NCBI GenBank assembly: GCA_963731685.1
Contig: CAVSWR010000036.1
Location: forward strand, 263,191-327,190
Length of the DNA: 64,000 bases
Origin: an uncultured Planctomycetia bacterium
GTDB lineage: Bacteria > Planctomycetota > Planctomycetia > Pirellulales > S012-138
Direction: 5' to 3'
Shown here: one piece after another, positions 8,265 through 57,152 of the stretch
Position numbering within the stretch: the stretch's first letter is position 1
Layout of the letters: each line of letters starts with the position of its first letter
Translations under genes and position numbers: made by a program
The notes under the pieces: model-generated
Databases searched by the model: none
What the model saw: the letters and a program-made list of their open reading frames with translations, nothing else
What the model was told of the DNA's origin: nothing

Positions 8265-8370
8265 TCGCGGGGCGCGGCCGAAGGCAAACGCTCGAAAGTG
8301 GTCGACGCCGGTAGCCGCCCCTTTCGCGAACGCCGAACTTCGGACATACCGAAGGCCTCGCTTCGGGCGG

Positions 8371-8571
8371 TCAATCGGGCCGGCGAGAGGTAGACCGCGC
8401 GGCCGAGGCGCGCCCATGAGGCCCTCGTCCCGGCATTTCAAACGAGCGCAGCGCGGATTTGAAGTTGGGAACCAATCCCATCAGTGCGTTCCACTCACTA
8501 AGTTGCTCGTCGCTCAATTCATCCGGTCGATCTTGACAAATACGCTGTGCCTTGTCGTGGCAAGCTTGCAC
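8371..8571 (-). CDS. Small hypothetical ORF in low-GC islet
   Basis: The first ~45 aa are protein-like (MQACHDKAQRICQDRPDELSDEQLSEWNALMGLVPNFKSA). The tail runs into high-GC sequence and is probably not coding. Confidence 0.25.
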   Translation of the reverse strand: MQACHDKAQRICQDRPDELSDEQLSEWNALMGLVPNFKSALRSFEMPGRGPHGRASAARSTSRRPD

Positions 8572-8587
8572 CGCCGATTCGAATAAA

Positions 8588-8893
8588 TCACAGATGCCCT
8601 TTCACATGCCGGCAAATCGCCATCTGGTGTTGGTTACGCAGCCGGTCGATCGCGCTCGAAAGCTCAGTGGCAATGTATTGCAACATTATCGCCGCGTTCC
8701 ACAATTCATCACTGGCCGAAGCGCATTGCCGCTTCATCTGCTGGTCGACGTCGCTGGCGCCAAGTCTGGTGACGTCGGCCATGGCGCAGCACATAGCGGT
8801 CGTCACCTGCCAGTTTATCCAGATAGTGATCTCCGCTGGGCGACAGAGCCAACTGATCTTCGCTCTCTGATTGGATTTCATCGTTCTGCCCAT
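8588..8893 (-). CDS. Small hypothetical ORF overlapping the 3' end of the NTPase gene; may be the true NTPase C-terminus after a frameshift
   Basis: Protein-like helix-rich translation (…ELWNAAIMLQYIATELSSAIDRLRNQHQMAI…) in a ~48% GC region. It overlaps 8709-8893 in a different frame from the NTPase. Confidence 0.25.
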   Translation of the reverse strand: MGRTMKSNQRAKISWLCRPAEITIWINWQVTTAMCCAMADVTRLGASDVDQQMKRQCASASDELWNAAIMLQYIATELSSAIDRLRNQHQMAICRHVKGHL

Positions 8894-10298
8894 TGAACCG
8901 TCCGACCGTACGAAGCAAACGTCGCTGCATGAGACGCGTAACGCTCAGACGAACGCCGGCCGTGTGGTATCCCAACATCTCGAGTTCGCTCGCCAAACGG
9001 TCGAACGTAATACCGCGCTCCTGGGTCAAGCTGCGCATCGTCTGCAGAATGCAAGCATTGAGGAACCGGCCCAAGGGCTGCGCACATTCGGCGTCGAACA
9101 GGTTGATGAAACTCCCCCCGGAGTCTTCGGTTTGCCGGTGGTGGCGATAGGCGCCGCGGAAACAGGCCATGACCATCTCGTCTTCGTTCCAGGGCTGGCC
9201 GGCCAATCGCCTCTCGATCTGGGAGCAATAATGACCCGAGCGCAACAGGTCTGCAACGTCGTCAAGCACAGCGCGCAAGTCGCCGCAATGAATGCGGCAA
9301 AGCATGTCGTAAAGCGACGGGAATTCGCCCCACGATTCGGCGACCACCTGGTAAAGCGACTCGAGGAATTCGTTGCGGCCGGCCTCAGGCGCCCAACTAA
9401 GGTTGAGATCTTCGCCGTGTTCGAACCGCCGCCAAATGTCCTTCGCGGCGTCCATGCTGCGCACCACTTCGGCCCGCAATCGAAGCACCTCGGTGATCAA
9501 CGGCGGCGCCACGGTGACGCAAACCGGATCGGTCAGGGCCGTTGCGCCGACGGAATTCGGCCGCGCTGCGACGGTCACTGTCAAGTCGGGTGTCGCCAAC
9601 GACGAGGCGTATTCAATGGCAAATCGTTGAATGTCGGCGCCTAGGCAATCCAGGTTGTCGAGAACGATCCAGCCTTGCACACCCTGCTGCGCCATGTCGG
9701 CCGCAACGCTTTCCAGGACATCGGCAAACTCGCGTTCACTCAGGCTGCGGACGCTTTTGAGGGGAATTTGGCTGCCGCGAGTTTCCATGCCGCGCCGGCG
9801 GTGCATTCGAGTGGCGCTTTCGTACAGCCCTTCGCGAATCGACTGCTTGATGAAATCTTGCGCCGACTGGCCGGCCGAACGCGCGGCAATTGCCTGTCCG
9901 TCGAGACGATAGAAATAGCTCGAACTGGCGCGGAATTCTTGCGAGAAAAAACGCAGCATCCAGGTTGTCTTGCCAATGCCCTGGTCGCCTATGAGCAAGA
10001 CGGGACGCAGCGCGGCGTCGGTGGAATCGCCGGCCGTGCGGCGGCCGCGCAATTCACGCAGGTTGTGTTGTTGGGCCTCTGGCTTTGTCTCCAGCCGTAG
10101 CACGGCGGACAACGTTAAACCCGGATACCGTCGTTTGGAGACGGCCGCTTCGAGCTCGCAGTACGCTTCCTGCGCAACAACGTCGGGCGGAAGGCTCAGC
10201 GACAGCAAGAACGGTTCGATCACCTGCCGCCAACCCTCGTCGACGGGACACGTGTCTTCCGCCTCGGGAATGATGTCGATCAAGCGCTTTTGGTTCAT
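8709..10298 (-). CDS. Orphan P-loop NTPase (AAA/STAND-like), low-GC
   Basis: GGAGGG RBS then ATG at 10298. Walker A LLIGDQGIGKTTWML and Walker B-like GWIVLDNLDCLG. Local GC ~50-55% versus ~65% in flanking genes. Confidence 0.65.
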   Translation of the reverse strand: MNQKRLIDIIPEAEDTCPVDEGWRQVIEPFLLSLSLPPDVVAQEAYCELEAAVSKRRYPGLTLSAVLRLETKPEAQQHNLRELRGRRTAGDSTDAALRPVLLIGDQGIGKTTWMLRFFSQEFRASSSYFYRLDGQAIAARSAGQSAQDFIKQSIREGLYESATRMHRRRGMETRGSQIPLKSVRSLSEREFADVLESVAADMAQQGVQGWIVLDNLDCLGADIQRFAIEYASSLATPDLTVTVAARPNSVGATALTDPVCVTVAPPLITEVLRLRAEVVRSMDAAKDIWRRFEHGEDLNLSWAPEAGRNEFLESLYQVVAESWGEFPSLYDMLCRIHCGDLRAVLDDVADLLRSGHYCSQIERRLAGQPWNEDEMVMACFRGAYRHHRQTEDSGGSFINLFDAECAQPLGRFLNACILQTMRSLTQERGITFDRLASELEMLGYHTAGVRLSVTRLMQRRLLRTVGRFNGQNDEIQSESEDQLALSPSGDHYLDKLAGDDRYVLRHGRRHQTWRQRRRPADEAAMRFGQ

Positions 10299-10843
10299 TG
10301 GCTTCCCTCCCTCCCACGCGCTCGTTTTGGCTTTCGCAAGGCGCCCAAGTTGGCCGGCCCAGGAGGCGCCGAGGTTGCGTGCAATCAATGCCGCACAGGA
10401 ATGCTTACAAGGGGCGTCGCCGTGGGCAATCGCAACGACTCGGTTGATTCACTACCTCGTTCGATCTCCGGGTTTTCCAATAGTCTCGCTCCACCCGCAT
10501 CCCACAGCGATGATCCGGGGCCGGCGCGCCATGGTGTTGCCAATGCGTCCGTCGGCGCACCCCGGCATCGATGGCCCTATTCAGAAAAAAGCCCGAAACC
10601 GGCGCCAAGCCTGCCCACAAGGCGACGGATTTCGGGCCTTCGGACGCTAAAAGGTTGTTCCCGCAATAATGAATATCGAAATCGAAAGGAGAAACCGGCC
10701 CCGGGGTTGGAGATAATTTCTAAGGATTAGCGACAACCCGGCGGATGGCAGGCCACGTAGCGACTCCACGGCATGCTGCCCTGCTCCCAGGCTTCGCAGA
10801 ATACGCAAACCTCCATGCTGGCGGCGGGGCCGTCGCGTGGATT

Positions 10844-10938
10844 TTAGTCCACGCGCGCGACGTGACGCACAATGCGGCTAGCGTGGGCGGCTAGCGTGGG
10901 CGGCTAGCGTGGGGCGGCTCGTGTGGAATGAATTCCAC
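10844..10938. repeat. Palindrome GCGTGGAttttagTCCACGC, three tandem 13-bp units GCGGCTAGCGTGG (10875-10913) plus a partial fourth, then palindrome GTGGAATgAATTCCAC
   Basis: Direct reading of the intergenic region between the NTPase start and the nfi stop. Confidence 0.6.
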
Positions 10939-10981
10939 GCTACGGAAGGTTGTGTTCGACTCCAGCCGCCCTGCCGGGAAT

Positions 10982-11507
10982 TCACGCCAAGTCTTGGCCG
11001 CCGTAGCGCGAGAGGTGGTCGGCGCGGCGGATAAGCGTGGGGATGCGATGAGCCCCGTGCATTTGCTCGATGTGGCGGGCCGCGTCCAAAGGGTCGATTC
11101 CCGCCGCAGTGACGATCAACGGTCTGCGACTTGCGCCGCGGAAGACTTCGACCCCACATCCGCCGGCAAATCGGCTCTTCGCCACGCCCACCACGTGGGC
11201 CGACGAACCCAGCGCCTGGTACAGCATGGCGCCAAGTCCTTTGCGTCCTTGGTCGTCCAGCCAGACGTAGCCGTCGATGATGATCGTATCGAGCGAGTCG
11301 ATACACGACCGGGTTGCGGAAAGAATACAAGGCAATTCGCGGCGAAAGAACTCGCCTGGCACATAGTTGGCCGATTCTTGTAGCCGCTCGTCAACGATTT
11401 CGCGCGGGGGCTTCATCCGTCCAATTCTCAAACACGACCACGCCGGTTTGCGATTTGAGCGTGGTGTAGTAGGTGTCTACGCAAGCAATCAAAACGCGGC
11501 GCCTCAT
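10982..11507 (-). CDS. nfi: Endonuclease V (deoxyinosine 3' endonuclease), interrupted by a frameshift at a G5/C5 homopolymer (11406-11410)
   Basis: N-terminal segment MRRRVLIACVDTYY…VVVFENWTDEAP (EndoV DxD region) is in one frame. From KPPREIVDERLQESANYVPGEFF through IIIDGYVWLDDQGRKGLGAMLYQALGSSAHVVGVAKSRFAGG (matching E. coli Nfi [21 protein letters not shown]…GVAKKRLCG) is in another frame. Confidence 0.7.
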
Positions 11508-11964
11508 TGCATAAAGTTGTTGAACCTGGCAGAGCAGGCGAAGTCTTCGCAAACGTTACAAAGCGAACCGTTTAACCTGCGCAGCGAGAAACTTCGCCAT
11601 AGATAGCACTTGCGATTCGTGTTGGACTCGGAAATTTACGATAAATAAGTAGAAATAAGGCGTTCGTGACAATCCAGAAGATTGGAGTATTTTGGCAAAC
11701 GGGCCGTACTGCTCTAAATGGTGGGGCTCAGCCATTGCAGATACTTCCGAACTCGATGCAAAGTCTGGAATGCCAACGTCTTAGGCTAATCCAATGAAGG
11801 ATGACGGGGCGGGGACGTCGCGGGAGTATCGACCAGAATGAAGCGGAACGGCTCGTTCGATCGTTTGTAGGAACCAACGAGGAACGCTTCCCTCGTGTGG
11901 CTGGGTACCGAGGTTCCGCAAACGTGATGGGGCGTTCCGCTTCTTCTGTTTTTCTGCTGATCGC

Positions 11965-12969
11965 TCACTCGGTGATTCTCAATTCGCCCAGCGCCGTCAA
12001 CACGGCCTCGTGCAGCGCGCCGTTTGTGGCGACCAGTCCTCGGTTGGCGGTTAATTCGGCGCCGCGGCCAAAATCCAACGGCTTGCCGAGAAGGTCGGAG
12101 ACCCCGCCTCCGGCTTCTTCCACTAACAGCGCGCCGCTGGCGTGGTCCCAGATCTTCTCGCGGCGGTTCACGCGTTTGGGCGCCCTAAAATAGGCGTCAA
12201 CCTGGCCCCTTGCCACGATCGCATACTTGACCTGGCTGCCGGCGCGCAGCTTCGGCGCCGACGAGCCCAAGTGCGAAGCGACCGCCGCCGTGTTCTCCGC
12301 CCAACCCGGGCTTGTCTCGGTCGATTCGCAAAAGCGAGTCTGTGTGGGGTCCGTCTGAGGACTCACCCGAACCGGCGCCGGCTGCTGCTGGTTGTCCGAA
12401 ATCGGCCGCTGCCACGCGCCGCCGCCGCGCGCCGCAAAGAGGATGACGCCGGTTTCGGATTCGGGACGCAGGGGATCAACCGCCAACGTCGGGCATCCCA
12501 GCACGGCGACGTCAACACGGCCTTCCACAATCAACGCCAGGCAGACCGCATAGTGTTCGCCGCGAATGAAGCCCATCGTTCCGTCGATTGGGTCCATCGT
12601 CCAAAGTCTGGGAGCAAACTCTCGATGGGCGCCCCAGTCGATCCAACGGCAAACATCGTCGCTGCTGGCCGTCGGCGCCGCGCGGCGCGTCAACGCCACG
12701 GCTTGTTCCAGATAGGAAGCGCCGACGGGGGTCCGCAGTTCATCCGCCGTTTCCTCGCCAATGATCAAATCTTCGGGAAACTCCGCCCGGATGGCGCGGC
12801 ACAGCAACGCCTGGCAGGCCATATCGGCCACCGTGACGGGGCTGCCGTCGGGTTTCGTCAACACGCCGTCGGCAAGGTTGTCTTGTGCCGCGCGGCACAC
12901 CTCGCTGCACTGACGCACCACATCGACGGCCAATTGCAGCTCTGTCTCATAATCGAAATCGTTGGGCAT
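11965..12969 (-). CDS. Inositol monophosphatase / CysQ-like 3'(2'),5'-bisphosphate nucleotidase family
   Basis: WTMDPIDGT motif (W-x-DP-[IL]-DGT) together with an EE…metal-binding region. Confidence 0.75.
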   Translation of the reverse strand: MPNDFDYETELQLAVDVVRQCSEVCRAAQDNLADGVLTKPDGSPVTVADMACQALLCRAIRAEFPEDLIIGEETADELRTPVGASYLEQAVALTRRAAPTASSDDVCRWIDWGAHREFAPRLWTMDPIDGTMGFIRGEHYAVCLALIVEGRVDVAVLGCPTLAVDPLRPESETGVILFAARGGGAWQRPISDNQQQPAPVRVSPQTDPTQTRFCESTETSPGWAENTAAVASHLGSSAPKLRAGSQVKYAIVARGQVDAYFRAPKRVNRREKIWDHASGALLVEEAGGGVSDLLGKPLDFGRGAELTANRGLVATNGALHEAVLTALGELRITE

Positions 12970-13955: not shown

Positions 13956-16262
13956 TTACAAGCGTTTGCGGAAACACACCAGCAGAGCGGGCAGAATCAC
14001 CAGGTCTCCGACCAGCGCGGCCGCCAGCGTGGCGCAGGCCATGCCGGCGAAGAGCTGATGCGTCGGCAGCCGGCTCGTCAACACCGTGGCGAAGCCGGCC
14101 AGCATGACCACGGTCGTCATGACCAGCGCCGTGCCTACGGAGTGGAAGGTGGCCAGCACCGCGTCGCGCGGGTCGAGCCCGCGGCGGCGCTCCGACTGAA
14201 ATCGCGACAAGAAGTGGATCGTGTCGTCCACGGCGATTCCCAGGCAAATGGTAAAGGCGCATGCGCTGGCGATATCGAGCGACGTGCTCAGGCAGGCGCG
14301 TACGGCGCCCGTGGCCGCCAGGGGAAACAGGTTGGGGATGATCGAGATCAAACCCAGCGTTAGCGAGCGATAGGCCAGCGTCAGCACGAGCAAGATGATT
14401 CCCGCCGCGGTCGCCAGGCTCTTGGCCAGATCGCGGGCGACGTGGCGAACGATCTTTCCCTCGAGCAACGGTTGGCCCGCCAATTCGATGCGAAAACCCG
14501 GATGGCGGCGGCTGATGTTGGCCAGTTCGCGCTGCAGCCGCCGCACGACCGGTTCGTAACGCACGATGCCCAGGTCTTGCATGCGGCCCACGACAAGGCG
14601 CGACGTTGCTCGGGCCGCCAGAATTGCCGCCGCACGTCTGGCGGAACGCCGTAGGCAAGGGGAAGTTTCAACCAAGTGTCGCCGCCAGGCAGAGCGGACA
14701 GCCAGAGCCGGATCGACATGGCGCCGCGGATCAACGGCTCCTCGGTCAGGAGCTGCTCGCTCTGCTTGATCACGTTCCAGATTTGTGACGGCCGGGCGCG
14801 TTCCGGCCATTCGACCACTGCCTGAACGTATCGCACGCCGCCGAACTCGCGGTCGCAGTGATCGAGCGCTTGCCAAGCCTCGGCGCTGTGGGGAATGCGA
14901 TCCCGGAGTCGATCGTCCGGCTGCAGCCGCAGCGCGAGCAGTGTCAGTGCGAGCGTCAGCACGACGCCGAAACTGGCGACGAGTTTTGGCCGCGCGAGCA
15001 CGAAATCGACAAGCCATGTCAAGCGGCGCATGTTGCGGCCCACCAGGTCGCGTTCGAGCCCAGCGTGAAGCCGCCGCCCAACCCAGGAGACCGACAGCAG
15101 CGGAATCACGCAGATCACAGCCACGAACGTGAACATGACGCCAAGGGCCGCTGCGCGCCCAAAGCTGCGGATGATCTCCGAATCGGACACCATCAGCGAA
15201 CCGAAGCCAATCGCCGTGGTGAGCGACGTCAAAAAGCACGCCGCGCCGACCTGTTTGACGGTCGCGCGGGCGGCTTCGACCGCGCCAAGTCCCGCCGCGC
15301 GCTCGCGTCGCAGGTGGACTACCAAATGCACGCCGTCGGTGAAGCCGACCATCATGAGCATGACGGGCAAGATGATGTCGGAGAGGTCGTTGCGCGGTTC
15401 GCCCAACAGGTTGAGCAGACCGAGCGTCCAGAGAACGCCCAGCACCGAACCGCTGCAGGCAATGGCAATCGCGCTAGGGCGGCGAAAGATGATCATCGCC
15501 AGCACGAAGACCAGCACGTAGCCGATGAGTTGAATTCGCTTGTGGTCCTGCTCGAAAGCCTTGCGATACGCATGAAACAACGGCACGACGCCCGTCAAGC
15601 GAACGCGGAGGCCCGCCTTTTCCAGACTCTCGCGGGCAAGGGCGCTCGCCGCGTCGATCGTCTGGCGCCGATGATCCTTGAAGATAACGGGCATGAGCAT
15701 CGTTCGCCCGTCTCGGGAGAGCAACTGATCGCGAATGAGCGGGTTCTGCAGGAAGGTCTCAGCGGTCACTTTGGGCGGCTTGCCGAGCGACCACGCTTGC
15801 AGTTTGCCCACCCACTCCGGAAGGGAAGCGAGTTCTTCTCGCGTGGCCTTCGCGATTCGGCCCGTCGATCAACGAGTCGGCCGGAAAGTCGATTCCAAAC
15901 GGATACATCCGCGGAATCCTGCCGATCCAGAGAACGCTGGCGACACCCGGCGCCCGTTCGATCTTCTTGACCGTCTCGCGTAACGCCAACATCCGGTCGG
16001 CGCGGAAAAAATCATCCGACTCGATGACGAACACGCACGGCAGGCCCTGGAAATCGAAGCGGTCGGAGGCCTCGTCAATGACCCGCATGTCGCGAGCGAG
16101 ATCCTGGCTGTCGATGGAGGCCCAGGATATATGGCGTCTCTCGCCCAGGCTCACGCCCGACCAGCCAAGCGCCGCCAGCGCTGAAACCGCAACGACGACA
16201 GCCCATCCCAGGTACTTTCGGCGCACGAGCCCGTCCGCAAGCCAGTCGATGACGCGTTGCAT
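13956..16262 (-). CDS. MMPL/RND-superfamily exporter (SSD-type membrane transporter), with two or more apparent frameshifts
   Basis: Three consecutive ORFs (15759..16292, 14381..15811, 13956..15239) together give the N-terminal TM plus periplasmic domain, then a 6-TM bundle, a second periplasmic domain and a second TM bundle (…LVMTTVVMLAGFATVLTSRLP…). Confidence 0.7.
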
Positions 16263-21663: not shown

Positions 21664-22126
21664 CGAGACTCTTCGCCTTGCGCCTCGCGAGTGCGGCCCT
21701 GCTCAAAAATGGCCCTCGCAATGGTTCTTCCTCAGTCCTGCGGCGCGAGCCACAAAAGCGCCGCCGCAACCTCCAAACAAGCTAACCCGCGCCCGTCGGA
21801 CGTGCAACCACGCCCCGTTTTTCCGCGTGCCAAGGCGCCCGCCTCCTCGCGCACCGCCGCGGAAGCTCCCGCGCTGTTTAAGCGCTAACCGCGTTCTCAA
21901 AAACGCCGGATGTGGAATTGAACCAAACGGCGAAAACTGCTAGTGGGGCGTCTTCACGCTCGGCCTCACTTTTCACATCGGAGGCGAGTTCACTTCAAGG
22001 GCCAGTTCTCGCCTCTCAACGTGGGGGGGCGCCAAGTCTACTAGAACTGCTGTTACAGGGGACACAACCCGGCCGGCGGCCGTTGGGCGCGCAAGGAAGC
22101 GGCGCCGCGGACGCCAGCTCAAACTC

Positions 22127-24875
22127 TTGCCCCGGGAAAACATGCAAACAACCCGTCGTTTTCGGATGACCTCGGCTTTCGTTCCAGGGATGGGCCAGCC
22201 GAAGAAATCATCTGCTCGCCAAGCGCACTCGAAGCTTTCCTCGCATCGCATGCTTTGCTTCGAGCGTCTGGAAGATCGCCTGCTGTTGTCCGCTGATCCC
22301 CTCGCCGGATTGCAAAGCGTGGCCGGTGACAACGCCATCGATTCGGGACCGCCATCCAATATCGCGGCGGAGATCCAAGGCAGCAATGATCTCATCGCGG
22401 TCAGCAACACCACTGCCACGCCTTGGAGCCGAATCGTTCGCCTGCGCGTGCATTGGCGCGACGGTTCCGCCAGCGTTTGCAGCGGCGCCTTAATCGACGC
22501 CTCGCATGTCTTGACCGCCGGACATTGCGTCTACGACGCCGAGAACCAGCACGGCGGCGGCTGGGCGCAAAGCATTGAAGTCTATGCTGGACGCGACGGC
22601 GGCGAGATGCCTTTCGGCGTGGCCTACAGCCAGGGTCTGCACGCCTTTTCCGGCTGGACACAAGGCGCCGCCGCGGGCGACGATATGGGCTGGTTTCAAC
22701 TGGACCGCAGCCTCGGAGACTACACCGGCGCCTTTACGCTGCGCACAGACCGACGCGGAACTCACCGGCGCCACGGTCAACCTGGCCGGTTATCCGGGAA
22801 CGTCGGGTTACACCGGCAACGACCTCTACCGCGCCTTCGGTTCCATTGACTCCGTCACGAGCGGGCAGCTTCGCTACAGCGGAACGCTCGACACGCTAGG
22901 CGGCATGAGCGGCTCGCCTGTCTGGCGCTACAACGCCAGCGCCGGCGAGCGCTACCTGGTGGGCGTACACGCCAAAGGCGGCAGTTCCTTTAACGCCGCC
23001 ACCCGGTTGACCTCCGGCAAACTCTCGACAATCATCAGCAGCATCGCGGCTGATCCTCCGCCCGCGGATAAGCCCGCCTTGATGGACTACGACAGTTGGT
23101 TCGGCGCCCAGTCGGCGAGCTTGTCGGCGACTTCCGTGGCGCCGGGGCAGAGTCTTACGCTCGCCTCCAGCGTCTTTAACGGCGGCACGCGCGCCGGCTC
23201 ATCGGTCAAGGTGAATTTCTACGCCTCGACGAACACAACCATTTCATCCGCCGACCATCTCATCGGCTCGTCCTACGTGAACGTGGCGCCGTACAGTCGC
23301 AGCGTCGCAACTTGGACCGGCGCCTTTCCCGGCACGATTCCCGCGGGAAGCTACTACGTCGGCTGGCAGATCGATCCGGACAACACGGTTTTGGAATTCG
23401 CCGACGGCGCCAATACCGGGCAGTTCTCGTCGGCGACAAAGCTGAGCGTTACGGCCGGCCAACCGAAACTCGTTGGGGCCTCGCTGGCGGTTTCCCCCAG
23501 CCGGTTAGCCGCCGGCGACGCGTTCGATGCGAGTTTTCGCGTGCGCAACGACGGCGCCGCCGCGGCCGGCGCGTTCGACGTGAAGTTCTACATCAGCTCC
23601 AACAGCATCATTTCCACCGCCGACCGGCTGCTCGGCGCCTATCGCGTGTCGGGACTGGCCGCCGACACGACAAGCGCCGCCATGCACAAGTCGTTGGCGC
23701 TGCCTGCGCGCGGCGACAGCTTCTGGAACGTCGACGGCACATATTACATCGGCATGATGGTCAATCCCAGCCTGGTCGCCAGCGAAGTGACGGCCGAGGT
23801 CGCGGATGCCTCAAGCCGAAACGCGCCCGTTGACATCGTCGGCGCGCAATTCGCCACGTTCAACTTGATTGGCCGCGACGCGTCCGGTCAATGGAAAATG
23901 GCCAGCGAGGCCGACGGGGTTTTGTCGTCCACTGCGCTTGGCGCCTGGGATGAATCGGCCGGTTGGCGCGACGTTGTCACCGGCGACTTTAACGGCGACG
24001 GCCAGACCGATGTCGTGAGCCGCACCGCCACGGGCCAATGGTGGCTGGGCGGCGCCAACGGCGACTCGTCCATAAACGAATATCTCGGCGCGTGGGACGA
24101 ATCGGCCGGTTGGCGCGACGTGACGGCCGGCGACTTCAACGGTGACGGGCGACTCGATATTGTCGGCCGCACCGCCACGGGACAATGGTGGCTGGGCCAA
24201 AACACCGGCGCCTCGTTCGTCAACGTTTATCTCGGCGCCTGGGACGAATCGGCCAATTGGCGCGACGTGATGACGGGCGACTTCAACGGCGACGGGCGAC
24301 TCGACATCGTCGGCCGCACCGCCACGGGACAATGGTGGTTGGGCCAAAATGTCGGGACTTCGTTCGTCAACGTATACCTCGGCGCCTGGGACGAATCGGC
24401 CAATTGGCGCGACGTGATGACGGGCGACTTCAACGGCGACGGGCGACTCGATATTGTCGGCCGCACCGCCACGGGACAATGGTGGCTGGGCCAAAACACC
24501 GGCGCCGCCCTGGTCGAACAGTTGTTTGGCGACTGGAGCGACACAAAGGATTGGCGCGATGTGGGCCTGGGTGATTTCGACGGCGATGGGCGATTGGACG
24601 TGATCGGCCGCACAGCCGGAGGCGCCTGGCGCGTGGGCCGCAACACGGGGTCGGCCTTCGAGAATCAAATCTTTGGCGCTTGGGATGAATCGGCCGGCTG
24701 GCGCGACGTGTTCGCGGCCGACCTCAATCACGACGGTCGAACGGACGTGATCGGCCGCACCGCCAGCGGGCAGTGGTGGCTTGGCGCCAGCGACGGCGCG
24801 GAACTCGTAAACCATTACCTGGGCGTGTGGAGCGCAACAGACGACTGGCGCGACGTGTCGGTGCTGCCCGGTTAA
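22127..24875 (+). CDS. Secreted trypsin-like (S1/glutamyl-endopeptidase-like) serine protease with C-terminal FG-GAP/VCBS-type tandem repeats; apparent frameshift ~22730-22760
   Basis: N-terminal MLCFERLEDRLLLSA motif. Catalytic His in TAGHC and Ser in GMSGSP. C-terminal GDFNGDGRLD repeat units. The protein is split between ORFs 22127..22849 and 22575..24875. Confidence 0.7.
23935..24860 (+). repeat. About five to six near-identical ~180-bp tandem repeats (coding, FG-GAP-like units)
   Basis: The unit LGAWDESA(G/N)WRDV..GDFNGDGRLDIVGRTATGQWWLGQN.G.SFVNVY is repeated with >90% nucleotide identity between central copies. Confidence 0.8.
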
Positions 24876-41390: not shown

Positions 41391-42072
41391 GTTGTGGCGC
41401 AACGACTTACATCGCGAATTCGGCGGGCGTCTGTCAAACATGGGCTAGCCACCCCTCAATGGTACGAAAATCTTCTTTGGGGGGTGCGTGGGCTGCTATC
41501 GGTCCAATCGGGGCGCCGCGCGAGGGTTCCAGCCGGTTTATGTATTGCCGAGAGCGCAGTGTGGCGCGTACGATCGCCGCCGCCTTCGTGGGACAGCGCC
41601 ACTTCCGGCCGCCATACAAGCACGACGCGCGAGCAAGTGAGTCGGTAACGTCAAGACCCACTCGCTCGCGCGTCGTGCTCGTATTCACGGTGGAACATGC
41701 AAAGGTGGCGCTGTCCATTTACAGGGCTGCGCGAAGGCGCCAACGCGGGCGGCCACGGTTGCAAAGCGGGTTGCGGTCAGAGGCAACACCCTGTCGTAAC
41801 CGCGGCACTGAACCTGACAGCGGCGCGGGCGTGAGTTGCGAATAGTCTGGCGACTTCTGCTACAGGGAAACGTGCAAGACCCGAATTCTGTCGGCGATCG
41901 TGCGATGTCTCCGCTGACGCCTGCGCACGAATGACCGGAGCGACACATCTCGAAGACACGACCGCGACAACGTATTGCTTGCGAGCCAAAGCCCGGCTGC
42001 CGTACAATCGAGTGGGCCTGTTCTGCCCGCGGGCCGCTGTTGCTCGAAACATTTGCCTAGGAGCCTCCCATC

Positions 42073-42749
42073 ATGCGAACGTCACTCGTCGCTGCACTCG
42101 CCGTATTCTTTGTTTCTTGCGCTGCCTCACTTTGCGCGGCGGACAAGCCGGTAGACGCCGTGCAGCTTTTTAACGGCAAAGACCTCTCGAATTGGACGTG
42201 GGTCTCGGACAAGGCCGGCTCGAAAATCGGCGATGTCTGGAGCGTCTTGGATGGCGTGTTGTATTGCACGGGAAACCCCCGCGGCTACATTCGCACCAAG
42301 CGAGACGACTACCACGATTACGTGCTCACGGTCGAATGGCGCTGGCCCAAAGGCGGCAAAGGCGGCAACAACGGCGTGTTGGCGCATACCACGACGCCCG
42401 GGCGCTGGGCGTCTGGCCCAAGTCGATCGAGGTGCAGTTGGCAAGCGGCAACGCGGGCGATTTTTGGGTGATCGGCACGGAACTCGACGTGCCGAACGAA
42501 GAAACCCGCAAGAAGGGCCGCCGCCATCTCAATCTTACGGACGATTCAGAAAAGCCGTTCGGGGAATGGAACCAGATGGAGATCACCTGCCGTGGCGACG
42601 AGATCATCGTGAAGGTCAACGGCGACTTGGTGAATCACGCCACGAATTGCAGCGAGTCCAAGGGTTCGATCAGCCTGCAGTCCGAAGGCGCGCCGATCAG
42701 CTTCCGCAAGGTCGAGTTGAAACCGCTGCCGAACGCCAAAGATCGTTGA
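42073..42749 (+). CDS. DUF1080 (3-keto-disaccharide hydrolase-like / LamG-fold) secreted protein; apparent frameshift ~42400
   Basis: Signal peptide, then …LFNGKDLSNWTW…DGVLYCTG…GYIRTKRDDYHDYVLTVEWRW… followed in the second frame by …GDFWVIGTELDV…GEWNQMEITCRGDEIIVKVNGDLVNHA…SFRKVELKPL. Confidence 0.65.
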
Positions 42750-48915: not shown

Positions 48916-51693
48916 GTGCCAGCCCGGGTTGATACAATCAGCAAAGCAAATGCCGCGCCCCGGCCCGACTACGACCGCGACCTGGCGCTGCTCGACGCCG
49001 ACACCGGCTACCAGTCCGACAGCGCCGCCCGCTACGCCAGTGAGATGCTCGCGCTGGCCCAAGGCAGCGACACGCCCTGGGGCTGGGAGCACTCTGCGGA
49101 GGCCGCCGCCGCGGCCGAATACGCCTCCTCGATGGCCGCCGCCGCACTGACCGACGGCACGGCCACGATCGACGAGAGCTACACGTTCGCGCAGACCGTG
49201 GCCGACGAGACCCGCACGCTTTCGGTTAACGAGGCCACGGCCGCCTTCAATTCCGCCACGGCGCTGGCCGCGGCCGAGTACAACCACGTGACGTCCCACG
49301 CCACGGCCCTGGCCAACGACAACTACGACATCGCCGAGCGCGTGCCGACGGCGGTGATCACCTTGGTGGGATTGGACGACCTGGATGGCCGCGCGGCCGG
49401 CGACCCGGCCGACTTCATCGCGGCCTTGAACAAGAACGGCGGCTCCCCGTTCAGTGACCTCGGCGACAGCTTCTACACGGCGGCCGTCGACAAGATGTTC
49501 TACACGCCGCCGGAGACCGACGAACTCGGCTACAGCAACAGCTTCGACCGCTGGCTCGGCGAGAACCTCATCCGCCCCGCCGTCGGCGACGACAACCTCA
49601 TCAACGCCACCGACGCCCAGCTATTCTGGGGCACCGCGGCCTTCGCCGCGATAAGCGCGGTGAGCATTGTCTACGCCGCCCCAGTGCTCGCCACGGCCGT
49701 GGTCGACATGGGCATCAAGGGGGTGGTGTTCACACTGGCGAAAGATTTCATCATTGGCGGCGCGATCTCTGGCATCATCGACGCGGGCGTGCAGTTGGAG
49801 CACATGTACGAAAACGGCGGCGACTTCAATTGGAGTCGACTCGGCGAGTCCATCGTCGTGGGCGGTGTGATGGGCATGGGGATGGGAACGGCCTTCCGCG
49901 GCGTGCAGACCTTGTCGAAGGCCCTCACCACGCGCTACGCCGCGGCTTGCGTGCCGGTCACCATCGGCCAAAAGCTGGGGCTCGGCTACTTGGGCAGCAA
50001 GGGCATCGCTCATGGCGTCGAGGCCATCGGCAACGGCGAGACGGTCGAAGGCGTCAGCAGCATCTTGTTCGGCGCCCTCGGCGTGGCCGGCGCCCTGTCC
50101 ATGCGTTGGAACTGCTTCACGGCCGGCCATCAGATTCTCGCCTTGCCGCTCGGCGTGACCGTCGCTGAAGCTTCGGCAAGCATGAGCGACGAAACGCGAG
50201 GTTGGCGAACTGAGTATTTCATCGGCGCCAGCGTGGCGATTGCGGTCGGCATGACCGGTTGGGTGCGCGAACGCCGCAAACGCCGGCGACTGTTGGCGCA
50301 AGCCCGCGACCATGTGTATGGTTCCCAGTGGGAATCAAACTCGCGACATGACCTCGACGATGACGCATATCCAGATTTGATGCCGGAAGCAATCGCCATG
50401 GATGACGCCGAGGCTACTATTTGGGCGGATGAATCGTACCTGCCGGACGCGGACTATTTTGATGAGCGCGCAGCTCTACTTCAGGCGCTGAACAAGCTTG
50501 CGGCGTAGCGTGCCTACCGCGGCCACAAGCGGAGTTGATTCGCGATCCGCGCGCCGCGAAGCCATCCGCTGCGCGCAAAGCGAAGATCCCGGCCGATCAG
50601 CCGAGAGAATCACATCGCGGCGCGTCTATGGATCGGCCTTTCACTCATCGTCGCTTTCTTCTGTCTTTTCCAGGCGCTGCCCCGTTGGTCGCGCACCGAC
50701 GGCCTTTCTTCGTCGCGCACGCGACACGCTGTCGCTCCGTCTTCGCTCGACACGAATATCGCCAGCGACTACCGCGTCGGCGCCGAGAACTACAAGTTCT
50801 TCAACATCGAGGACATTCGCCCGGGACAGCTGGTCCTGGCGTCCAACCCTGCCACCGGCCAGCTTGAACCGCGCCGTGTCCTCCAAACCTTCCAGCGCAC
50901 AACCTACCACCTCCGCTACCTGACCTTCGAGTCTACCACCGGCGTCCGCCAAACCTTCGAGACAACGGACGAGCACCCGTTCTGGTCGCAATCTGAATTC
51001 CGCTGGGTATCCGCCGGCGACCTCCAACCCGGTGACCGCGTCATCGACCCGCACGGCGCGCAATCCCTCCTCGTCACCACCCACCGCGAGCCCCACCCCG
51101 AAGGCGTAACCGTCTACAACTTCGAGGTCGAAGGCTTCCACAGCTACTTCGTAGCGGCAAAAGGCCCTGGCGGTGAGCCGGTATTGGTGCATAATGCGGA
51201 CTGCGGCCCCAACTCGCCCAGCCGCTCCAGATCCCGTCCGTCAAACGACAACTTCCGTAACGGCTATGATCGGATATTTGGAAATGGTTCATCAGCAGAA
51301 ACGCGGGTGTTCCAAAATGAAATCCCCATCATGACACCAGCGCAAACGCAGCAAGCGCTAAGGGCTGGCGGCTACACAGGAAACACTTCGTGGGCATACA
51401 GCATTCATGATCATCACATCTCTCCGCGTTGGCTGGGTGGAAAAGACGCGGGACCACTGCTACGTGTGCGAGGTTTCGAGCATATTACCGATCTCGAACC
51501 TGGACTCTGGGCGCACGTGAAGCGAAACATCCCGGGGCTGACGGAAAAAACTACTGCAAATGTGCAGCGATTGATGCGAGACGGATTCGTCACAAGTGAA
51601 GAAATCATGCGAACGTTGTTCAGTTTTTACAAGGCTCGATATCCGCAACTATCGGATGAGGCAATCCTAAACGTGCTGAGACAGGGGTTGTGA
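48916..51693 (+). CDS. Polymorphic-toxin cassette A: 5'-truncated (homology to full-length copy starts ~48965, about aa 205) with two apparent frameshifts (~50440-50470 and ~50618); Hint domain plus C-terminal toxin tip A (DHH-type putative HNH/EndoVII-fold nuclease)
   Basis: ORFs 48916..50508, 50535.. and 51184..51693 together parallel copy 57352..60717. Landmarks are CFTAGHQILAL, …VYNFEVEGFHSYFVAAKGPGGEPVLVHN, then the tip …SIHDHHISPRWLGG…. Confidence 0.55.
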
Positions 51694-51694
51694 G

Positions 51695-52162
51695 ATGAAA
51701 TTCAACGAACAGATCCAAATTCGCGGCGAACCTTTTCCTAGCCCGCTCCCGTTGCCCCCATCACAAATGATTTCCCTGCTGGAGGCGCATGGCTTGCGAT
51801 TTGTGTTCGACGATGGCGTTTTGCGACTTCGTGGCACATATGACCCGACAAGATGCGAAACTTTAAAAGCGGTGTTGGCATCTAATGACCTTGATGTGAA
51901 TGTTTGGCAGCAAGTCTGGACAACATATGACGATGACGATTTCGACATGGCTCCTCTTTGGCTCGTCTTGGGGATTCCTGAAGTACGGATAGCGGGAATT
52001 GACTTTACTGTGACTTGCCCCATGTGCGCAAGAACCAAAGTCCACGTGGATACCGATGTACAAGTTCCAAGAGTGAATACACGCAAACCAATAGTCAACG
52101 TGAATGGGCAATTTACGATCGTTGGCGCAGAACTTGCCAGCGCATCGAAACGGACTTGCTAG
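51695..52162 (+). CDS. Candidate immunity protein for toxin tip A
   Basis: ATG overlaps the toxin stop (TGAGATG). ~48% GC. 155 aa. Confidence 0.45.
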   Translation: MKFNEQIQIRGEPFPSPLPLPPSQMISLLEAHGLRFVFDDGVLRLRGTYDPTRCETLKAVLASNDLDVNVWQQVWTTYDDDDFDMAPLWLVLGIPEVRIAGIDFTVTCPMCARTKVHVDTDVQVPRVNTRKPIVNVNGQFTIVGAELASASKRTC

Positions 52163-52176
52163 GATTCTCGCTGCCC

Positions 52177-52476
52177 ATGTTTGACGTTGCGGGCAGATAC
52201 CATTATTTGCGGTCTACGTGCCAACTTCGGCACCCTGCTATTCGTTCTGCTTACGCTATTGGTCTAAGAGGGAACTGCACGCTATGTTCGCTGCCACTCT
52301 ATGACAAATTCTTCGGCCCGCTGGAGTACCCCAGAAAGGAATGGCACGATGAGGATATTGTCTACTGCGACTTTTATAGTTGCAATGCATACACACCTAA
52401 GGCATACAATTTGCTTCGGAACGCTGACTCGGCTATTGTTCGAGACCGGATCATCTTGATGGAAGCATCGACGTGA
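52177..52476 (+). CDS. Second small low-GC ORF downstream of cassette A (hypothetical; possible additional immunity gene)
   Basis: 100-aa Cys/Tyr-rich ORF (…YCDFYSCNAYTPKAYNLL…). Confidence 0.3.
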   Translation: MFDVAGRYHYLRSTCQLRHPAIRSAYAIGLRGNCTLCSLPLYDKFFGPLEYPRKEWHDEDIVYCDFYSCNAYTPKAYNLLRNADSAIVRDRIILMEAST

Positions 52477-52752: not shown

Positions 52753-54088
52753 GTGCTCTTGAAAAACGGCCTTGGCTCGCCAGCTTTCGCCGGCGGCGGC
52801 GCCGACCATGTCTACGAATCGCAATGGTGGATGGAACTGCCGCGCCACGCGGATGAAGACGATGAATTCGATCGGGCGATGAGCGAAGGAATCGCCGTGA
52901 CTGACGGCGCCGATGCGGATGTCTGGTCGGACGAGTCATTCCTCCCTGAGGCCGATTCTTTCCGTGATTGCGAACCTTCGCCAACTTCCGTTGGAGTTCA
53001 CGCTTTAGGCTGCTTGACGCCGCCGCGCGCGGAACGATCAACGGCAACGGCGCGCTTTTCGAAAGGCGCCACGTTCCCATAAAACGCTTATCGAGTCCAA
53101 GCCGCCGCGCGAATCCCGCCGCGGCGCGCTCTGGCTCGGTGTTTCGCTCCTCGTGGCCTTCTTCTCTCTGTTCCAGGCCCTTCCCCGTTGGTCAGCAAAC
53201 GACGGCCTTGCGCCGACGTGCGTTGAGCAAGCCGTCACTCTCGACTCGCTCGACACCAAACTTGCCGGCGACTACCGCGTCGGCGGCGAGTCCTTCAGCT
53301 TCTTCAACATCGAGGACATTCGCCCCGGACAACTCGTCCTCGCCTCGAACCCCGCCACCGGCCAGCTTGAGCCCAAACGCGTCAAGCAAATCTTCCGCCG
53401 CATTACGGACCATCTCCGCCACCTCACCTTTGAATCCTCCACCGGCGCCCGCCAAACCTTCGAAACCACCGACGAGCACCCCTTCTGGTCGCAATCCGAA
53501 TTTCGCTGGCGCCCCGCCGGCGACCTCCAACCCGGCGACCGAGTCATCGACCCCCACGGCGCCACCTCTCTCCTCGTCGCCACGCATCGCGAACCCCACC
53601 CCGAAGGCGTCCCAGTCTACAACTTCGAGGTAGAAGGCTTCCACAGCTACTTCGTAGCGGCAAAAGGCCCTGGCGGCCAGCCAGTGTTGGTGCATAATGC
53701 AAATTCACAAACATATGGCCCCCACAAATCAATTGGAACGAAAACCGGAGAGCAACGTCATCACATAATCCAAGATGCAAGAGCCAGGATTGTCGACAAC
53801 TACAAGTATGGCGATGCTCCCGCGGTTCGACTTCGGGGGAACCGCTTGCGTGGCACGCCGCATGGCGATGCGAGCGCGATGCAAACTCGAATAAATCAGA
53901 CGCTCCTAAAGAAAGGCACGACTCGGATAAGGTATCCACAAGCTCGATCGGCGGCGCGCGCTGAACTAAGGGCCGCAGGTCTCACGGAAAAGGAAATAGA
54001 CATCTTGATAGAGGAAGCCGACGATTACTTCATAAACGAACTGAAAATTGATGTAACGCAACGCATTTTCAACGTCCCAACGCAATGA
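52753..54088 (+). CDS. Polymorphic-toxin cassette B: 5'-truncated orphan (homology starts ~52800 at ADHVYxxQW); apparent frameshift ~53040-53090; Hint domain plus toxin tip B (RHHIIQ-type putative HNH-fold nuclease)
   Basis: …VYNFEVEGFHSYFVAAKGPGGQPVLVHNANSQTYGPHKSIGTKTGEQRHHIIQDARARIV… The tip is unrelated to tips A, C and D. Confidence 0.55.
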
Positions 54089-54921
54089 AAACCTGTAACT
54101 ATGTACGTATAAGGCGTGGCCTAACTGAGTGTAAATCACTAGTCTTGGCTCATATCGAAGATGATGACTCGCCAGATGTAATAGTGAGTCAACTCATTTC
54201 TATTGGCAGCGGTGACTGCGAAATTGTGGGTGACTTTCCAGGTGAGTGGATCACGTGCTTCGACGTTCAAGAAGACCTATGTGTTGCGGTTTCGTCGCTC
54301 GGAACAATCTACGAATATCGCCATGGTAAATGGAGCATCATTGCACAATTGACCTTTCCTAATGTGATCGCTGATGTGATCATATTGGATCGTGGCACGT
54401 ACTTGATTGCTGGCCAAGGCGGATTGATAGGCGAGTGGTCGCATGATGGATTTGTGCGAACCAGAGCATCTCGACGTGTGGACTTGATCTCAATTTGTCG
54501 CGATGAAGACGGTGGTTACTTGATATGTGGTGACCAAGGAACCATCCTGAGGTATCGCGACAATGCGGTGTTTAGCGAAGATGCAGGCACGCGTGAAAAG
54601 CTAACGAGGATTCTTTGTACGAATGCAGGTTTGTCATTTGCTTGTGGTTGGAACGGCGCATTGATACGGCGCGAAAGCGGAAAATGGCTACCGATGGATA
54701 GTGGCACAGATTGGTGCCTTACCGGGATCGCAATCACCGATCACGACCAAGTCTATGTGGCAGGTGGCGGGCTCGCCCGAGTTGGAAACGGTACTTGCTG
54801 TGTAGAAATAGATTCTGATCTAACGAATACATATTTATTTGACATATGGAAGATTCGTGACGAGCAGTTTATCGTTACCGGCGTGGACCAGGTATTGACT
54901 GGACCTCCGTGGAAAGTTTAA
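54085..54921 (+). CDS. Candidate immunity protein for toxin tip B
   Basis: ATGA start/stop overlap. ~45% GC. 278-aa protein with repeated G-x-L/I-rich units suggesting a repeat/propeller fold. Confidence 0.45.
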   Translation: MKTCNYVRIRRGLTECKSLVLAHIEDDDSPDVIVSQLISIGSGDCEIVGDFPGEWITCFDVQEDLCVAVSSLGTIYEYRHGKWSIIAQLTFPNVIADVIILDRGTYLIAGQGGLIGEWSHDGFVRTRASRRVDLISICRDEDGGYLICGDQGTILRYRDNAVFSEDAGTREKLTRILCTNAGLSFACGWNGALIRRESGKWLPMDSGTDWCLTGIAITDHDQVYVAGGGLARVGNGTCCVEIDSDLTNTYLFDIWKIRDEQFIVTGVDQVLTGPPWKV

Positions 54922-55062: not shown

Positions 55063-56712
55063 TACCTACCTGAGCGGCAAAGGCATCGCTCATGGCGTCG
55101 AGGCGATCGGCAACGGCGAGACGGTCGAAGGCATCAGTAGCGTCCTCTTGGGCGCCCTCGGCGTGGCCGGCGCCTTGTCGATGCGTTGGAACTGCTTCAC
55201 CGCCGGCCATCAGATTCTCGCCTTGCCGCTCGGCGTGACGGTGGCCGAAGCCGCGCTCGGCGCGAATGATGAAACGACCGGTTGGCGAACCGAGTATCTC
55301 ATCGGCGCCGGCGTAGCGATTGCCGTCGGCATGACCGGTTGGGCGCGCGAGCGCCGCAAACGCAGGCGATTGTTGGCGGAAGCCCGCGACCATGTGTATG
55401 GTTGCCAGTGGGAAACAAACTCGCGACATGACTTCGACGATAACGACGACCCGTTGCGGGAAGCAATCGCCATGGACCACGCGGAAGCCGCTATTTGGTC
55501 AGATGAATCGTTCCTCCCAGACGGGGATTCGTTCAATGAGCCAACAACCACGTCTTTTACTTCAGGCTCTGAACAAGCTCACAGCGTAGCGTGCCTTGCG
55601 CCGCCGCATGTGGCGCTTTCCGCTCGAATGCCGTGCGCCACGAAACCATCCGCTGCCCGCAATGCGAACGTGAAAGTTAAGACGCCGCGCCGATCCCGTC
55701 GCAGCGGTCTTTGGCTTGGTCTTTCACTCGTCGTAGCTTTCTTCTGCCTGTTCCAGGCGTTACCTCGCTGGTCTTCCACCGATGGCCTGCCATCGGCGGG
55801 CAATCGGCACGCCGTCGCTCCTTCTTCGCTCGACACGAACATCGCCAGCGACTACCGCGTCGGCGCGAACACGTACAACTTCTTCAACATCGAGGACATT
55901 CGACCCGGACAACTGGTCCTCGCCTCGAACCCCGCCACCGGCCAACTCGAACCGCGGCGAGTCCTTCAAACCTTCCGCCGCACAACCCATCACCTGCGCC
56001 ACCTGACCTTCCAATCCCCCACCGGCGCCCACCAAACCTTCGAAACCACCGACGAGCACCCCTTCTGGTCCCACGGCGCCGCCCGCTGGACCCCCGCTGG
56101 CGACCTCCAACCCGGCGACCGAGTCATCGACCCCCACGGCGCCAATCCCTACTCATCGCCACCCGCCGCGACCCCCATCCCGAAGGCGTCACCGTCTACA
56201 ACTTCGAGGTCGAAGGTTTCCACAGCTATTTCGTAGCCGCCAAAGGCCCTGGCGGCCAACCGGTATTGGTTCATAATGCAGCCTGCGGCCCCAACTCGCC
56301 CAGCCGGTCCAGATCCCGTCCGGCCAACGACGAATACCGTTCGAGTTACGACCGGATTTTTGGTGGCACCCCTAGGGGCGGAGCACATCCTGCTACTAAG
56401 AAAGCTGCAAGTTTTGGCAGTACAATGCATGCCGATAAACCCGGACACCTTCCGGACCAACTGCGTCAACGCTTTCCAGAGACTGAGTTTGAATTCACCA
56501 AACCGGGCGTTGCAGGACAAGATGTAAAGGTCGCGGGTGGCAAACACCCTTCGGATTACGCTGGATCGACGTGGCCAAGCGGAGTTAACCATGCTGATTT
56601 CAAACCGAATACCCCCGGTGGCTTGAAGACGTTCCAATCCGACCAGCTCAAGAAATGGTTGGAGAGGACCGAAATGTTACGCTACAATCCATCAACCGGA
56701 GACCTACTGTGA
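55063..56712 (+). CDS. Polymorphic-toxin cassette B2: 5'-truncated orphan (homology starts ~55063, just before the CFTAGHQ motif); 1-nt deletion ~56150; Hint domain plus toxin tip C (unassigned)
   Basis: ORFs 55148..56236 and 55711..56712. The tip shares its first ~25 aa (ACGPNSPSRSRSRPANDEYRSSYDRIFGG) with tip A and then diverges (…HADKPGHLPDQLRQRFPETEFEFTKPGVAGQDVKVAGGKHPSDYAGSTWPSGVNHADFKPNTPGG…). Confidence 0.5.
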
Positions 56713-57152
56713 TTAGCAAACAATTGGCGTATCCAGGGTTTACGATTGATGTTCCATGCAGCTGGGATGATATTACGGCGACTCTTGATGATGCGGACGC
56801 GCCTATTACAATCGCAGATCCTCAAGCAGGTTTGGGGGCGTTTCAGATATCGCCTGCGTTATATAAACGTGGTGTCTTACCCAAAGTGACGCCCAACGAC
56901 CTGCGGACTATGCTTCTTGAGTTTACGTCCGCTAAGGGCTTTCATGCCGCTGGCGACGTGATAGAGAATCTGGGCGACACCATTGTGGTGGGCGGCGTTT
57001 TTCGCAGTTCAAACTACGCCGTGGAAGTTGCCTACGCCTCTGACGGGCGGAGTATTCTGTTGGTAACCTATGTTTGTGAATGGTTTCAGAGGCGTCAGGA
57101 ATCGGACGTGAGAATGGCAGTGATCCGCTCAATCCGCTTTGTTGATTCTTAA
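56709..57152 (+). CDS. Candidate immunity protein for toxin tip C
   Basis: GTG overlapping the toxin stop (GTGA). 148 aa, soluble. Confidence 0.4.
   Translation: MISKQLAYPGFTIDVPCSWDDITATLDDADAPITIADPQAGLGAFQISPALYKRGVLPKVTPNDLRTMLLEFTSAKGFHAAGDVIENLGDTIVVGGVFRSSNYAVEVAYASDGRSILLVTYVCEWFQRRQESDVRMAVIRSIRFVDS

Follow-up and report, generated by a model that had tools for sequence, protein, structure and literature searches.

A putative ORC/Cdc6-like AAA+ NTPase of a rare family, split into three reading frames in a planctomycete contig

Cdc6/ORC proteins are origin-linked and are universally conserved in archaea and eukaryotes. Defence STANDs carry a large C-terminal repeat sensor (TPR, WD40, or LRR), typically of at least 400 amino acids (PMC13581612), and MADS is an operon of eight genes (10.1101/2023.03.30.534895). 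We compared with these systems a locus at positions 8371-10298, minus strand, of a 64,000-nucleotide stretch of DNA from an uncultured Planctomycetia bacterium (assembly GCA_963731685.1, contig CAVSWR010000036.1, positions 263,191 to 327,190), which is called the window here. The locus likely encodes one member of a rare, unnamed ORC/Cdc6-like (STAND-related) family of AAA+ nucleoside triphosphatases (NTPases), and this reading, which takes in the gene structure and a role in conflict, is the best explanation of the whole.

First, the reading frames of the locus were analyzed. A sequence-only reading had described a P-loop NTPase with Walker motifs, followed on the same strand by one or two small open reading frames (ORFs), one of which overlapped the NTPase 3' end and might be its true C-terminus. 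The P-loop ORF is genuine and occupies 8709-10388 of the minus strand from the first TTG, or 8709-10298 (529 amino acids) from an ATG that is supported by homologues and preceded by a GGAGG-like Shine-Dalgarno sequence (gggagggagggaagcca-ATG). The same-strand small ORFs, 8588-8893 (overlapping the NTPase 3' end) and 8371-8571, are also present. Homologues of 611-685 amino acids, found by an exhaustive phmmer search, match the query only to about residue 503 and then continue with ..RYIQAMADVT... When P0002-P0005 were used as tblastn queries, the match in frame 1 ended at 8787-8790, with ..DDRYV reaching 8790 and AMADVTRLGAS.. following in a second frame from 8785. GC content peaks at the third codon position of the NTPase frame until about 8800, where the peak passes to the third position of the 8588-8893 frame, and the annotated 529-residue ORF closes with an Arg-rich tail, LRHGRRHQTWRQRRRPADEAAMRFGQ, which has the typical look of out-of-frame reading in GC-rich DNA. 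After repair of a second frameshift, ..RHVKG continues into ICDLFESAVQACHDKAQ.., for which the homologue counterpart is ..GFFYSGVWECHKQFKAL... The repaired gene and its parts are as follows.

8371-10298, minus strand: repaired gene of the putative ORC/Cdc6-like AAA+ NTPase, 641 codons plus a stop codon at 8371-8373, lying in three frames in the assembly
8787-10298, minus strand: fragment 1, residues 1-504, the 529-residue ORF without its out-of-frame Arg-rich tail (8709-8786)
about 8786, minus strand: frameshift 1, one extra base in gtgctgCgccatg, removal of which links ..DDRYVL to AMADVT..
8597-8785, minus strand: fragment 2, residues 505-567, inside the small ORF 8588-8893
about 8596, minus strand: frameshift 2, one extra base in gtgaaagggCatctg, removal of which links ..RHVKG to ICDLFESAVQACH..
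8371-8595, minus strand: fragment 3, residues 568-641, corresponding to the small ORF 8371-8571

An alignment of the repaired 641-residue protein with 19 homologues (611-685 amino acids) runs from end to end, and five invariant or near-invariant residues (R501, Y502, A505, N534, and E549) flank junction 1 on both sides. As an independent check, a hidden Markov model (HMM) built from the 19 homologues only was run on every stop-to-stop segment of the window, 1175 in total. It matched segment 8712-10448 (E 4e-96, profile positions 2-517), segment 8591-8944 (E 6.6e-6, profile 517-570), which is contiguous with fragment 1, and segment 8374-8601 (E 0.41, profile 591-632), which is collinear with the other two. 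In an AlphaFold2 model, fragment 3 forms the third helix of a C-terminal bundle with a predicted local distance difference test score (pLDDT) of about 90; its final 20 or so residues show no conservation and have low model confidence. Because the homologue-only HMM is collinear and conserved residues lie across junction 1, the frameshift 1 join is firmly supported, and the frameshift 2 join is moderately supported, resting on collinearity and the modelled third helix. To judge from the sequence, the NTPase ORF and the two small ORFs form one gene of about 641 codons. The motifs and ORFs of the sequence-only reading are therefore real, and its suggestion of a true C-terminus is right by both the homologue alignment and the homologue-only HMM, the second small ORF being part of that terminus too. 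However, the small ORFs are not separate genes, so the locus is not the multi-gene defence or addiction module that had been proposed.

Frameshifts were also found in other genes of the window. The endonuclease V gene (10982-11552, minus strand), directly upstream of the NTPase gene, is split in two frames at a run of five C near 11410 (gaagCCCCCgcgc); deletion of one C in this run (window 11395-11425) restored ..WTDEAPREIVDE.., and the C-terminal piece matches Pfam Endonuclease_5. An MMPL transporter gene (minus strand) is broken between 13956-14720 and 14384-15868, and the trypsin domain of a trypsin/FG-GAP/CARDB protein (plus strand) is broken between 21944-22846 and 22515-24872. In a 3-keto-disaccharide hydrolase gene (42061-42746, plus strand), positions 2-82 of the Pfam profile are matched in one frame and positions 82-187 in the next, with the break near 42410. 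Thus at least six frameshifts in 64 kb occur in unrelated genes including the NTPase gene, and most long ORFs are intact. Because the frameshifts are scattered over unrelated genes, we favour assembly indels over real decay as the origin of those in the NTPase gene, which is probably intact in vivo. The frequent frameshifts on this contig will mislead any ORF-based reading, and the annotation is corrected here from three ORFs to one gene.

The strongest alternative is a genuine pseudogene, in which a once-acquired conflict NTPase is decaying through two real frameshifts. We regard it as possible but doubtful; it stays in consideration because frameshift 1 lies in gtgctgcgcc, outside any homopolymer, and it is also consistent with the position of both shifts in the last quarter of the gene, with the broken endonuclease V gene next to it, and with the frequent loss of sporadic conflict genes. 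However, the window has at least four further frameshifts in unrelated genes (MMPL, trypsin/FG-GAP, 3-keto-disaccharide hydrolase, and endonuclease V), every invariant or near-invariant family residue is kept in the NTPase, including downstream of the shifts (the five residues listed above), and there are no in-frame stops and no deletions. Programmed frameshifting was rejected, since every homologue is a single uninterrupted ORF.

The NTPase, read as one intact protein, was next analyzed for motifs and fold. Walker A (GDQGIGKTT) occupies residues 104-112 and Walker B (WIVLDN, within WIVLDNLD) residues 210-215. The motifs conserved across 20 family members are GxxG[VI]GK[TS][ST]W; hhhhDNLDxY (D214, N215, D217), followed by Q224; hh.LRP.TY (R246, P247); PPSL..hL..R (R275); and Y.RG.Y.HYRG (Y379, R381, G382, R388). 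The AlphaFold2 model, made from the family alignment, had a pLDDT of 83.4 and a predicted template modelling score of 0.83, and it suggests the following domains.

10014-10298, minus strand: small helical N-terminal domain, residues 1-95; W23 and Y46 are invariant, D15 and P29 nearly so
9504-10013, minus strand: five-stranded AAA+ P-loop core, residues 96-265, indicated by the model, the motifs, and structural matches
9966-9989, minus strand: Walker A, in the P-loop core
9648-9671, minus strand: Walker B (WIVLDNLD), in the P-loop core
9558-9563, minus strand: sensor-1-like R246-P247, in the P-loop core
9099-9503, minus strand: helical lid, residues 266-400, with PP(S/L)L...R275 and Y..RG.Y.HHR (Y379, R381, G382, R388)
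8814-9086, minus strand: winged-helix-like domain, residues about 405-495, modelled as helices 408-424, 432-440, and 446-458 and strands 462-465 and 482-485
8446-8801, minus strand: C-terminal three-helix bundle, residues about 500-617, covering both frameshifts

Structural matches to Cdc6/ORC cover the AAA+ core through the winged-helix domain, and TnsC is also among the structural matches. The N-terminal helical domain aligns with the linker between nuclease and ATPase in longer relatives.

The membership of the protein in known families was then investigated. As the sequence-only reading had noted, the protein carries no family signature that can be placed: no curated family of Pfam, NCBIfam, or PADLOC matches it at threshold. 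The nearest is AAA_16 (PF13191), which the window protein matches with 26.0 bits (E 1.5e-5) and the repaired protein with 24.2 bits, so that the gathering threshold of 32.6 is not reached; 15 of the 20 relatives match AAA_16 at E<=0.01 (best E 3.4e-8), and PF13191 is listed for P0001 in its source database. The protein is a relative of the AAA_16 superfamily, not a threshold member. NACHT (PF05729) matches the P-loop portion only, with 16.8 bits where the cut-off is 26.7, and it weakly matches 12 of the 20 relatives (best E 1.1e-5); no STAND model reaches its gathering score. The Pfam Ras and ATPase_2 matches of the window protein are also limited to the P-loop, and over the 20 family members the AAA_16, NACHT, AAA_22, ATPase_2, NPHP3_N, KAP, and nSTAND models recur weakly. 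In a distant relative, P0040, the ORC-CDC6-like family PF24389 was found at E 0.0055. NCBIfam and PADLOC gave no match to the window protein, none of the PADLOC v2 systems (Avs, bNACHT, Septu PtuA, RADAR, BREX, MADS, and others) matched the protein or its fragments, and no housekeeping ATPase family was matched by profile. The PADLOC matches of the relatives are weak mad8 (8 of 20, E >= 3.7e-4) or PtuA, and the partner genes are absent from their neighbourhoods. The sole PHROGs match was phrog_14719, of unknown function, which with its 833 profile positions is comparable in length to the long-form relatives. A sequence search of the PDB gave only Rab/Ras noise at the level of the P-loop.

The family is very rare and is covered by no curated resource. 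Among 1.84 billion cluster representatives, the exhaustive phmmer search found the query's own cluster and 35 relatives at E<=1e-3, mostly metagenome singletons. A k-mer-indexed search with the protein found the protein itself only, and the same search with alignment A1 added one distant Hyalangium protein. One locus was present in 185,579 species-representative genomes and four in a metagenome collection, and no match to the repaired protein was found by tblastn in 72,556 plasmids and 50,697 phages. The host contigs of the relatives have 43 to 59% GC.

The relatives are stand-alone genes that occur on plasmids, in defence islands, and at variable chromosomal sites. Their neighbourhoods differ from case to case and hold many conflict or mobile-element genes. 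They include RelA_SpoT, NUDIX, and AAA_13; ISL3, DUF4365, and Schlafen-like genes; N6_Mtase (an N6 methyltransferase); ArdC, RadC, and AbiTii; and, in another case, an integrase on a plasmid-like contig. At L016 (192-6040), a neighbourhood of the conflict-system type, a family member of 651 amino acids lies directly downstream of a TIR-WD40 protein of 1102 amino acids, with an ORF of 145 amino acids overlapping its start. One relative lies between uvrC/ferritin and murB, which resembles the housekeeping setting of the window copy, and some relatives are adjoined by small unconserved ORFs. A conserved small partner gene was sought among the neighbours of the relatives and in the window, and none was found. 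The neighbours of the relatives were similar neither to each other nor to those in the window, and because the clade of the window protein has no conserved neighbour, the NTPase gene is a single-gene unit there.

Thirteen relatives (in the P0016-P0036 range) are long forms of 800-830 amino acids, consisting of an N-terminal domain followed by the entire short form; hhalign of the long against the short form gave E 4e-43 over 517 columns, with short-form residues 6-555 matched to long-form residues 203-773. The N-terminal domain has invariant E55, D65, and E79-A80-K81, a PD-(D/E)xK signature (E79 and K81 as numbered in P0016, the first sequence in alignment A2), and one long form matches type IIG restriction enzymes in their N-terminal domain (E 6e-7). 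Long forms occur on 31 sequenced plasmids (from Klebsiella, Shewanella, Paracoccus, and others), for example as Klebsiella QYQ71_RS28855 and Shewanella CEQ32_RS22740; their annotation reads 'hypothetical' or 'P-loop NTPase fold', and the one on a Shewanella plasmid adjoins a methyltransferase/restriction endonuclease pair (a restriction-modification system). In another clade, a pyridoxal phosphate (PLP)-dependent decarboxylase of the Orn/DAP/Arg type immediately precedes the NTPase gene, with a gap of 1-18 nucleotides, on three independent contigs; when two of these pairs, L009 and L018, were compared, they proved orthologous (68% and 54% identity). A literature search for defence systems that contain a decarboxylase found nothing relevant among the papers available. 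These loci are as follows.

L013, 6959-9403: long form on a Klebsiella pneumoniae plasmid
L014, 6983-9424: long form on the Shewanella plasmid
L009, 6515-9785: decarboxylase and NTPase pair on a conjugative plasmid contig of a Methylococcaceae metagenome-assembled genome (MAG), with Rep3, VirB4, VirB11, and VirD4
L018, 6690-9938: decarboxylase and NTPase pair, with a Trypco2-domain ORF upstream
JGI contig of P0013, 3977-5251 and 5253-7187: decarboxylase and NTPase genes of the third pair

Three features suggest a nucleotide-dependent switch: the ATP site is intact, the lid and winged helix are ORC/Cdc6-like, and some relatives are fused to a nuclease. If the protein behaves as Cdc6/ORC and STAND switches do, the winged helix would hold nucleic acid, and ATP binding would make the protein oligomerise or change conformation there; DNA binding and oligomerisation of the window protein are thus postulated. 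In the relatives, the switch would license the PD-(D/E)xK nuclease in cis or the adjacent PLP-dependent decarboxylase. The short form in the window would be a nuclease-less, single-gene version with no recognisable effector. It might draw in an effector through its conserved N-terminal domain (W23, Y46) or its C-terminal bundle; alternatively, the short form might act by DNA occlusion or remodelling. A role in conflict with phages or plasmids (anti-phage or anti-plasmid sensing) is the best-supported reading, although we put its chances at no better than even. The defence-type horizontal role proposed from the sequence alone is plausible in view of the patchy distribution and the contexts of the family, but PADLOC did not match the window protein and the islet composition was not borne out.

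Several points weigh against our overall reading. No experiment or curated defence model ties the family to immunity; PADLOC found nothing for the window protein, and in the relatives only the weak mad8 matches given above. The short form has neither a recognisable effector nor a large C-terminal sensor of the Avs/NLR type. The window copy sits among ordinary metabolic and repair genes in DNA of near-native composition, and its borders show no integrase, repeats, or tRNA. As to the gene structure, fragment 3 has little support from its sequence taken by itself. Frameshift 1 lies outside any homopolymer, and a real pseudogene would also account for two shifts within one gene.

The main functional alternative to an immune protein would be an ORC/Cdc6-type factor with which a mobile element is replicated, segregated, or maintained. 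Cdc6/ORC initiators are the best structural matches, TnsC matches too, and several relatives are plasmid-borne near Rep genes. However, the window copy and P0023 are found on chromosomes among housekeeping genes, with no other mobile-element genes; some relatives have an intact PD-(D/E)xK nuclease of the restriction type fused to them or are paired with a decarboxylase, which is unexpected for initiators; and the neighbourhoods are rich in defence genes. We therefore consider this function improbable.

The base composition and codon usage of the locus were also determined. The sequence-only reading had placed the NTPase in an islet of about 48-55% GC against a background of about 65%, but the actual values were 60.4% for region 8300-10400 and 60.6% for the NTPase ORF, against a window mean of 61.6%. 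Among 2100-nucleotide windows, the mean was 61.6% (standard deviation 2.7) and the 5th percentile 55.9%. A local dip is limited to 8400-8900, where GC falls to about 56% and single 100-nucleotide bins to 51%. The GC content at third codon positions (GC3) of the NTPase ORF was 0.70-0.71, compared with 0.69-0.85 in confident neighbouring genes. By leave-one-out synonymous-codon log-likelihood, the NTPase gene was second-lowest of 22 native-looking genes, yet within their range. All three measures compared here thus lie inside the native range; with no low-GC islet and no clear codon anomaly, composition is no argument for horizontal acquisition, and the compositional island argument fails. An acquired low-GC islet with a multi-gene defence or addiction module (the NTPase and one or two small partners) is very improbable: the very patchy family distribution, the codon usage near the bottom of the native range, and the small unconserved ORFs beside some relatives would fit it, but GC and GC3 are native, the small ORFs are collinear with the C-terminus of full-length homologues and had no match in PADLOC, Pfam, or PHROG searches, and the neighbours of the relatives share no similarity mutually or with the window.

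The real low-GC stretches of the window are at 11.3-12.0 kb and 51-57 kb. In the latter, GC over 500 nucleotides was 0.46-0.52 at about 51200-52200, 53600-54900, and 56300-57200. ORF 54085-54921 (GC 0.48, GC3 0.45) was by far the strongest codon-usage outlier of the window, and recent acquisition is more plausible for it than for the flagged 8300-10400 region. At 11250-12000, GC falls to 51% in a dip that takes in the part of the endonuclease V gene coding for the N-terminus and a non-coding stretch of about 410 nucleotides (11553-11964), which separates the endonuclease V and bisphosphate nucleotidase genes; the dip has no tRNA, and no Rfam family reached its gathering score there.

The NTPase gene is flanked by a lactonase gene and by the endonuclease V/bisphosphate nucleotidase pair. 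Its upstream spacer is as follows.

10299-10981, minus strand: upstream non-coding spacer, with the Shine-Dalgarno sequence (gggagggagggaagcca-ATG) and a terminator-like hairpin at 10612-10589

The hairpin probably ends the upstream endonuclease V gene and thus implies a promoter of its own for the NTPase gene. ORF 10408-10719 in the spacer had no protein-family match. A perfect threefold tandem repeat of a 13-nucleotide unit, GCGGCTAGCGTGG, is present at 10874-10913, just downstream of the endonuclease V stop codon. Scans for repeats, tRNA, Rfam families, and promoters or terminators near the locus revealed neither island borders nor an integrase, and no attachment-like repeats or RNA genes. 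Judged by the homologues of its lactonase, which were found in MAGs of Planctomycetales and Thermoguttaceae with identities of no more than 77%, the organism belongs to the Planctomycetota. Three Planctomycetota contigs with a lactonase 73-76% identical had no neighbours in common with the window and no NTPase; they were the nearest available and share no gene order with it.

The predicted fold and the gene contexts place the family among the NTPase switches of conflict systems, and its interest stems mostly from the modular relatives, less from the assembly-broken window copy. The nuclease fusions on Klebsiella and Shewanella plasmids and the decarboxylase pair on a conjugative plasmid are clonable candidates, with which it can be asked whether an ORC/Cdc6-like module with no repeat sensor is an immune receptor and whether a PLP decarboxylase is a defence effector. 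We know of no defence system in which a PLP decarboxylase serves as a metabolite-depleting or metabolite-producing effector. Only tentatively do we suggest that the family represents a class of immune sensor not described so far: compact, made of one protein, ATP-dependent, and based on an ORC/Cdc6-like module instead of a canonical STAND with repeat sensors. Its outputs would be interchangeable, namely a nuclease in cis (in the plasmid-borne long forms), a decarboxylase in trans, or nothing recognisable, as in the window copy.

Finally, the protein was compared with known systems. In the model it shares with Cdc6/ORC the common architecture of AAA+ core, lid, and C-terminal winged helix, and Cdc6/ORC proteins are its best structural matches, yet identity is 9-16% and no Cdc6/ORC model of Pfam or NCBIfam matches it. 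Walker B has DE in Cdc6/ORC and DNLD in the window protein, which also has an additional N-terminal domain and a C-terminal three-helix bundle. Moreover, unlike Cdc6/ORC, the family is bacterial, sporadic, and associated with mobile elements, and some relatives are fused to a nuclease.

With STAND/NACHT proteins the window protein shares a Walker B with a second acid (DNLD) and an RP after strand 4. D214, N215, D217, and R246-P247 are invariant or near-invariant in the 20 sequences, and the model places them on strands 208-214 and 239-245; we take DNLD to be like the NACHT DGxDE and the RP to be like the NACHT TSRP. Sub-threshold NACHT, AAA_16, NPHP3_N, and nSTAND matches in most relatives, Avs3 and NRC4 among the Foldseek matches of the window protein, and the effector-NTPase layout of the relatives with an N-terminal nuclease are further likenesses to immune STANDs. 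In contrast, the lid is followed, as modelled, by a winged helix and a three-helix bundle instead of a large repeat sensor, and neither Avs nor bNACHT was matched in PADLOC.

Foldseek against viral structures gave nothing significant. BrxC of BREX and mad8 of MADS are also ORC/Cdc6-like ATPases, which the relatives match with E-values of 4e-4 to 5e-3 and the window protein does not match. BREX and MADS are multi-gene operons (10.1101/2023.03.30.534895; PMC12839542), whereas no partner gene was found here or beside the relatives examined. RdrA of RADAR and the archaeal ATPase_2 proteins (PF01637; PDB 2qen, 2fna) have low identity (9-13%) and different C-terminal domains, and the window locus has no RdrB-like deaminase partner. 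By analogy, the protein would work like the Cdc6/ORC and STAND switches while being a profile member of neither.

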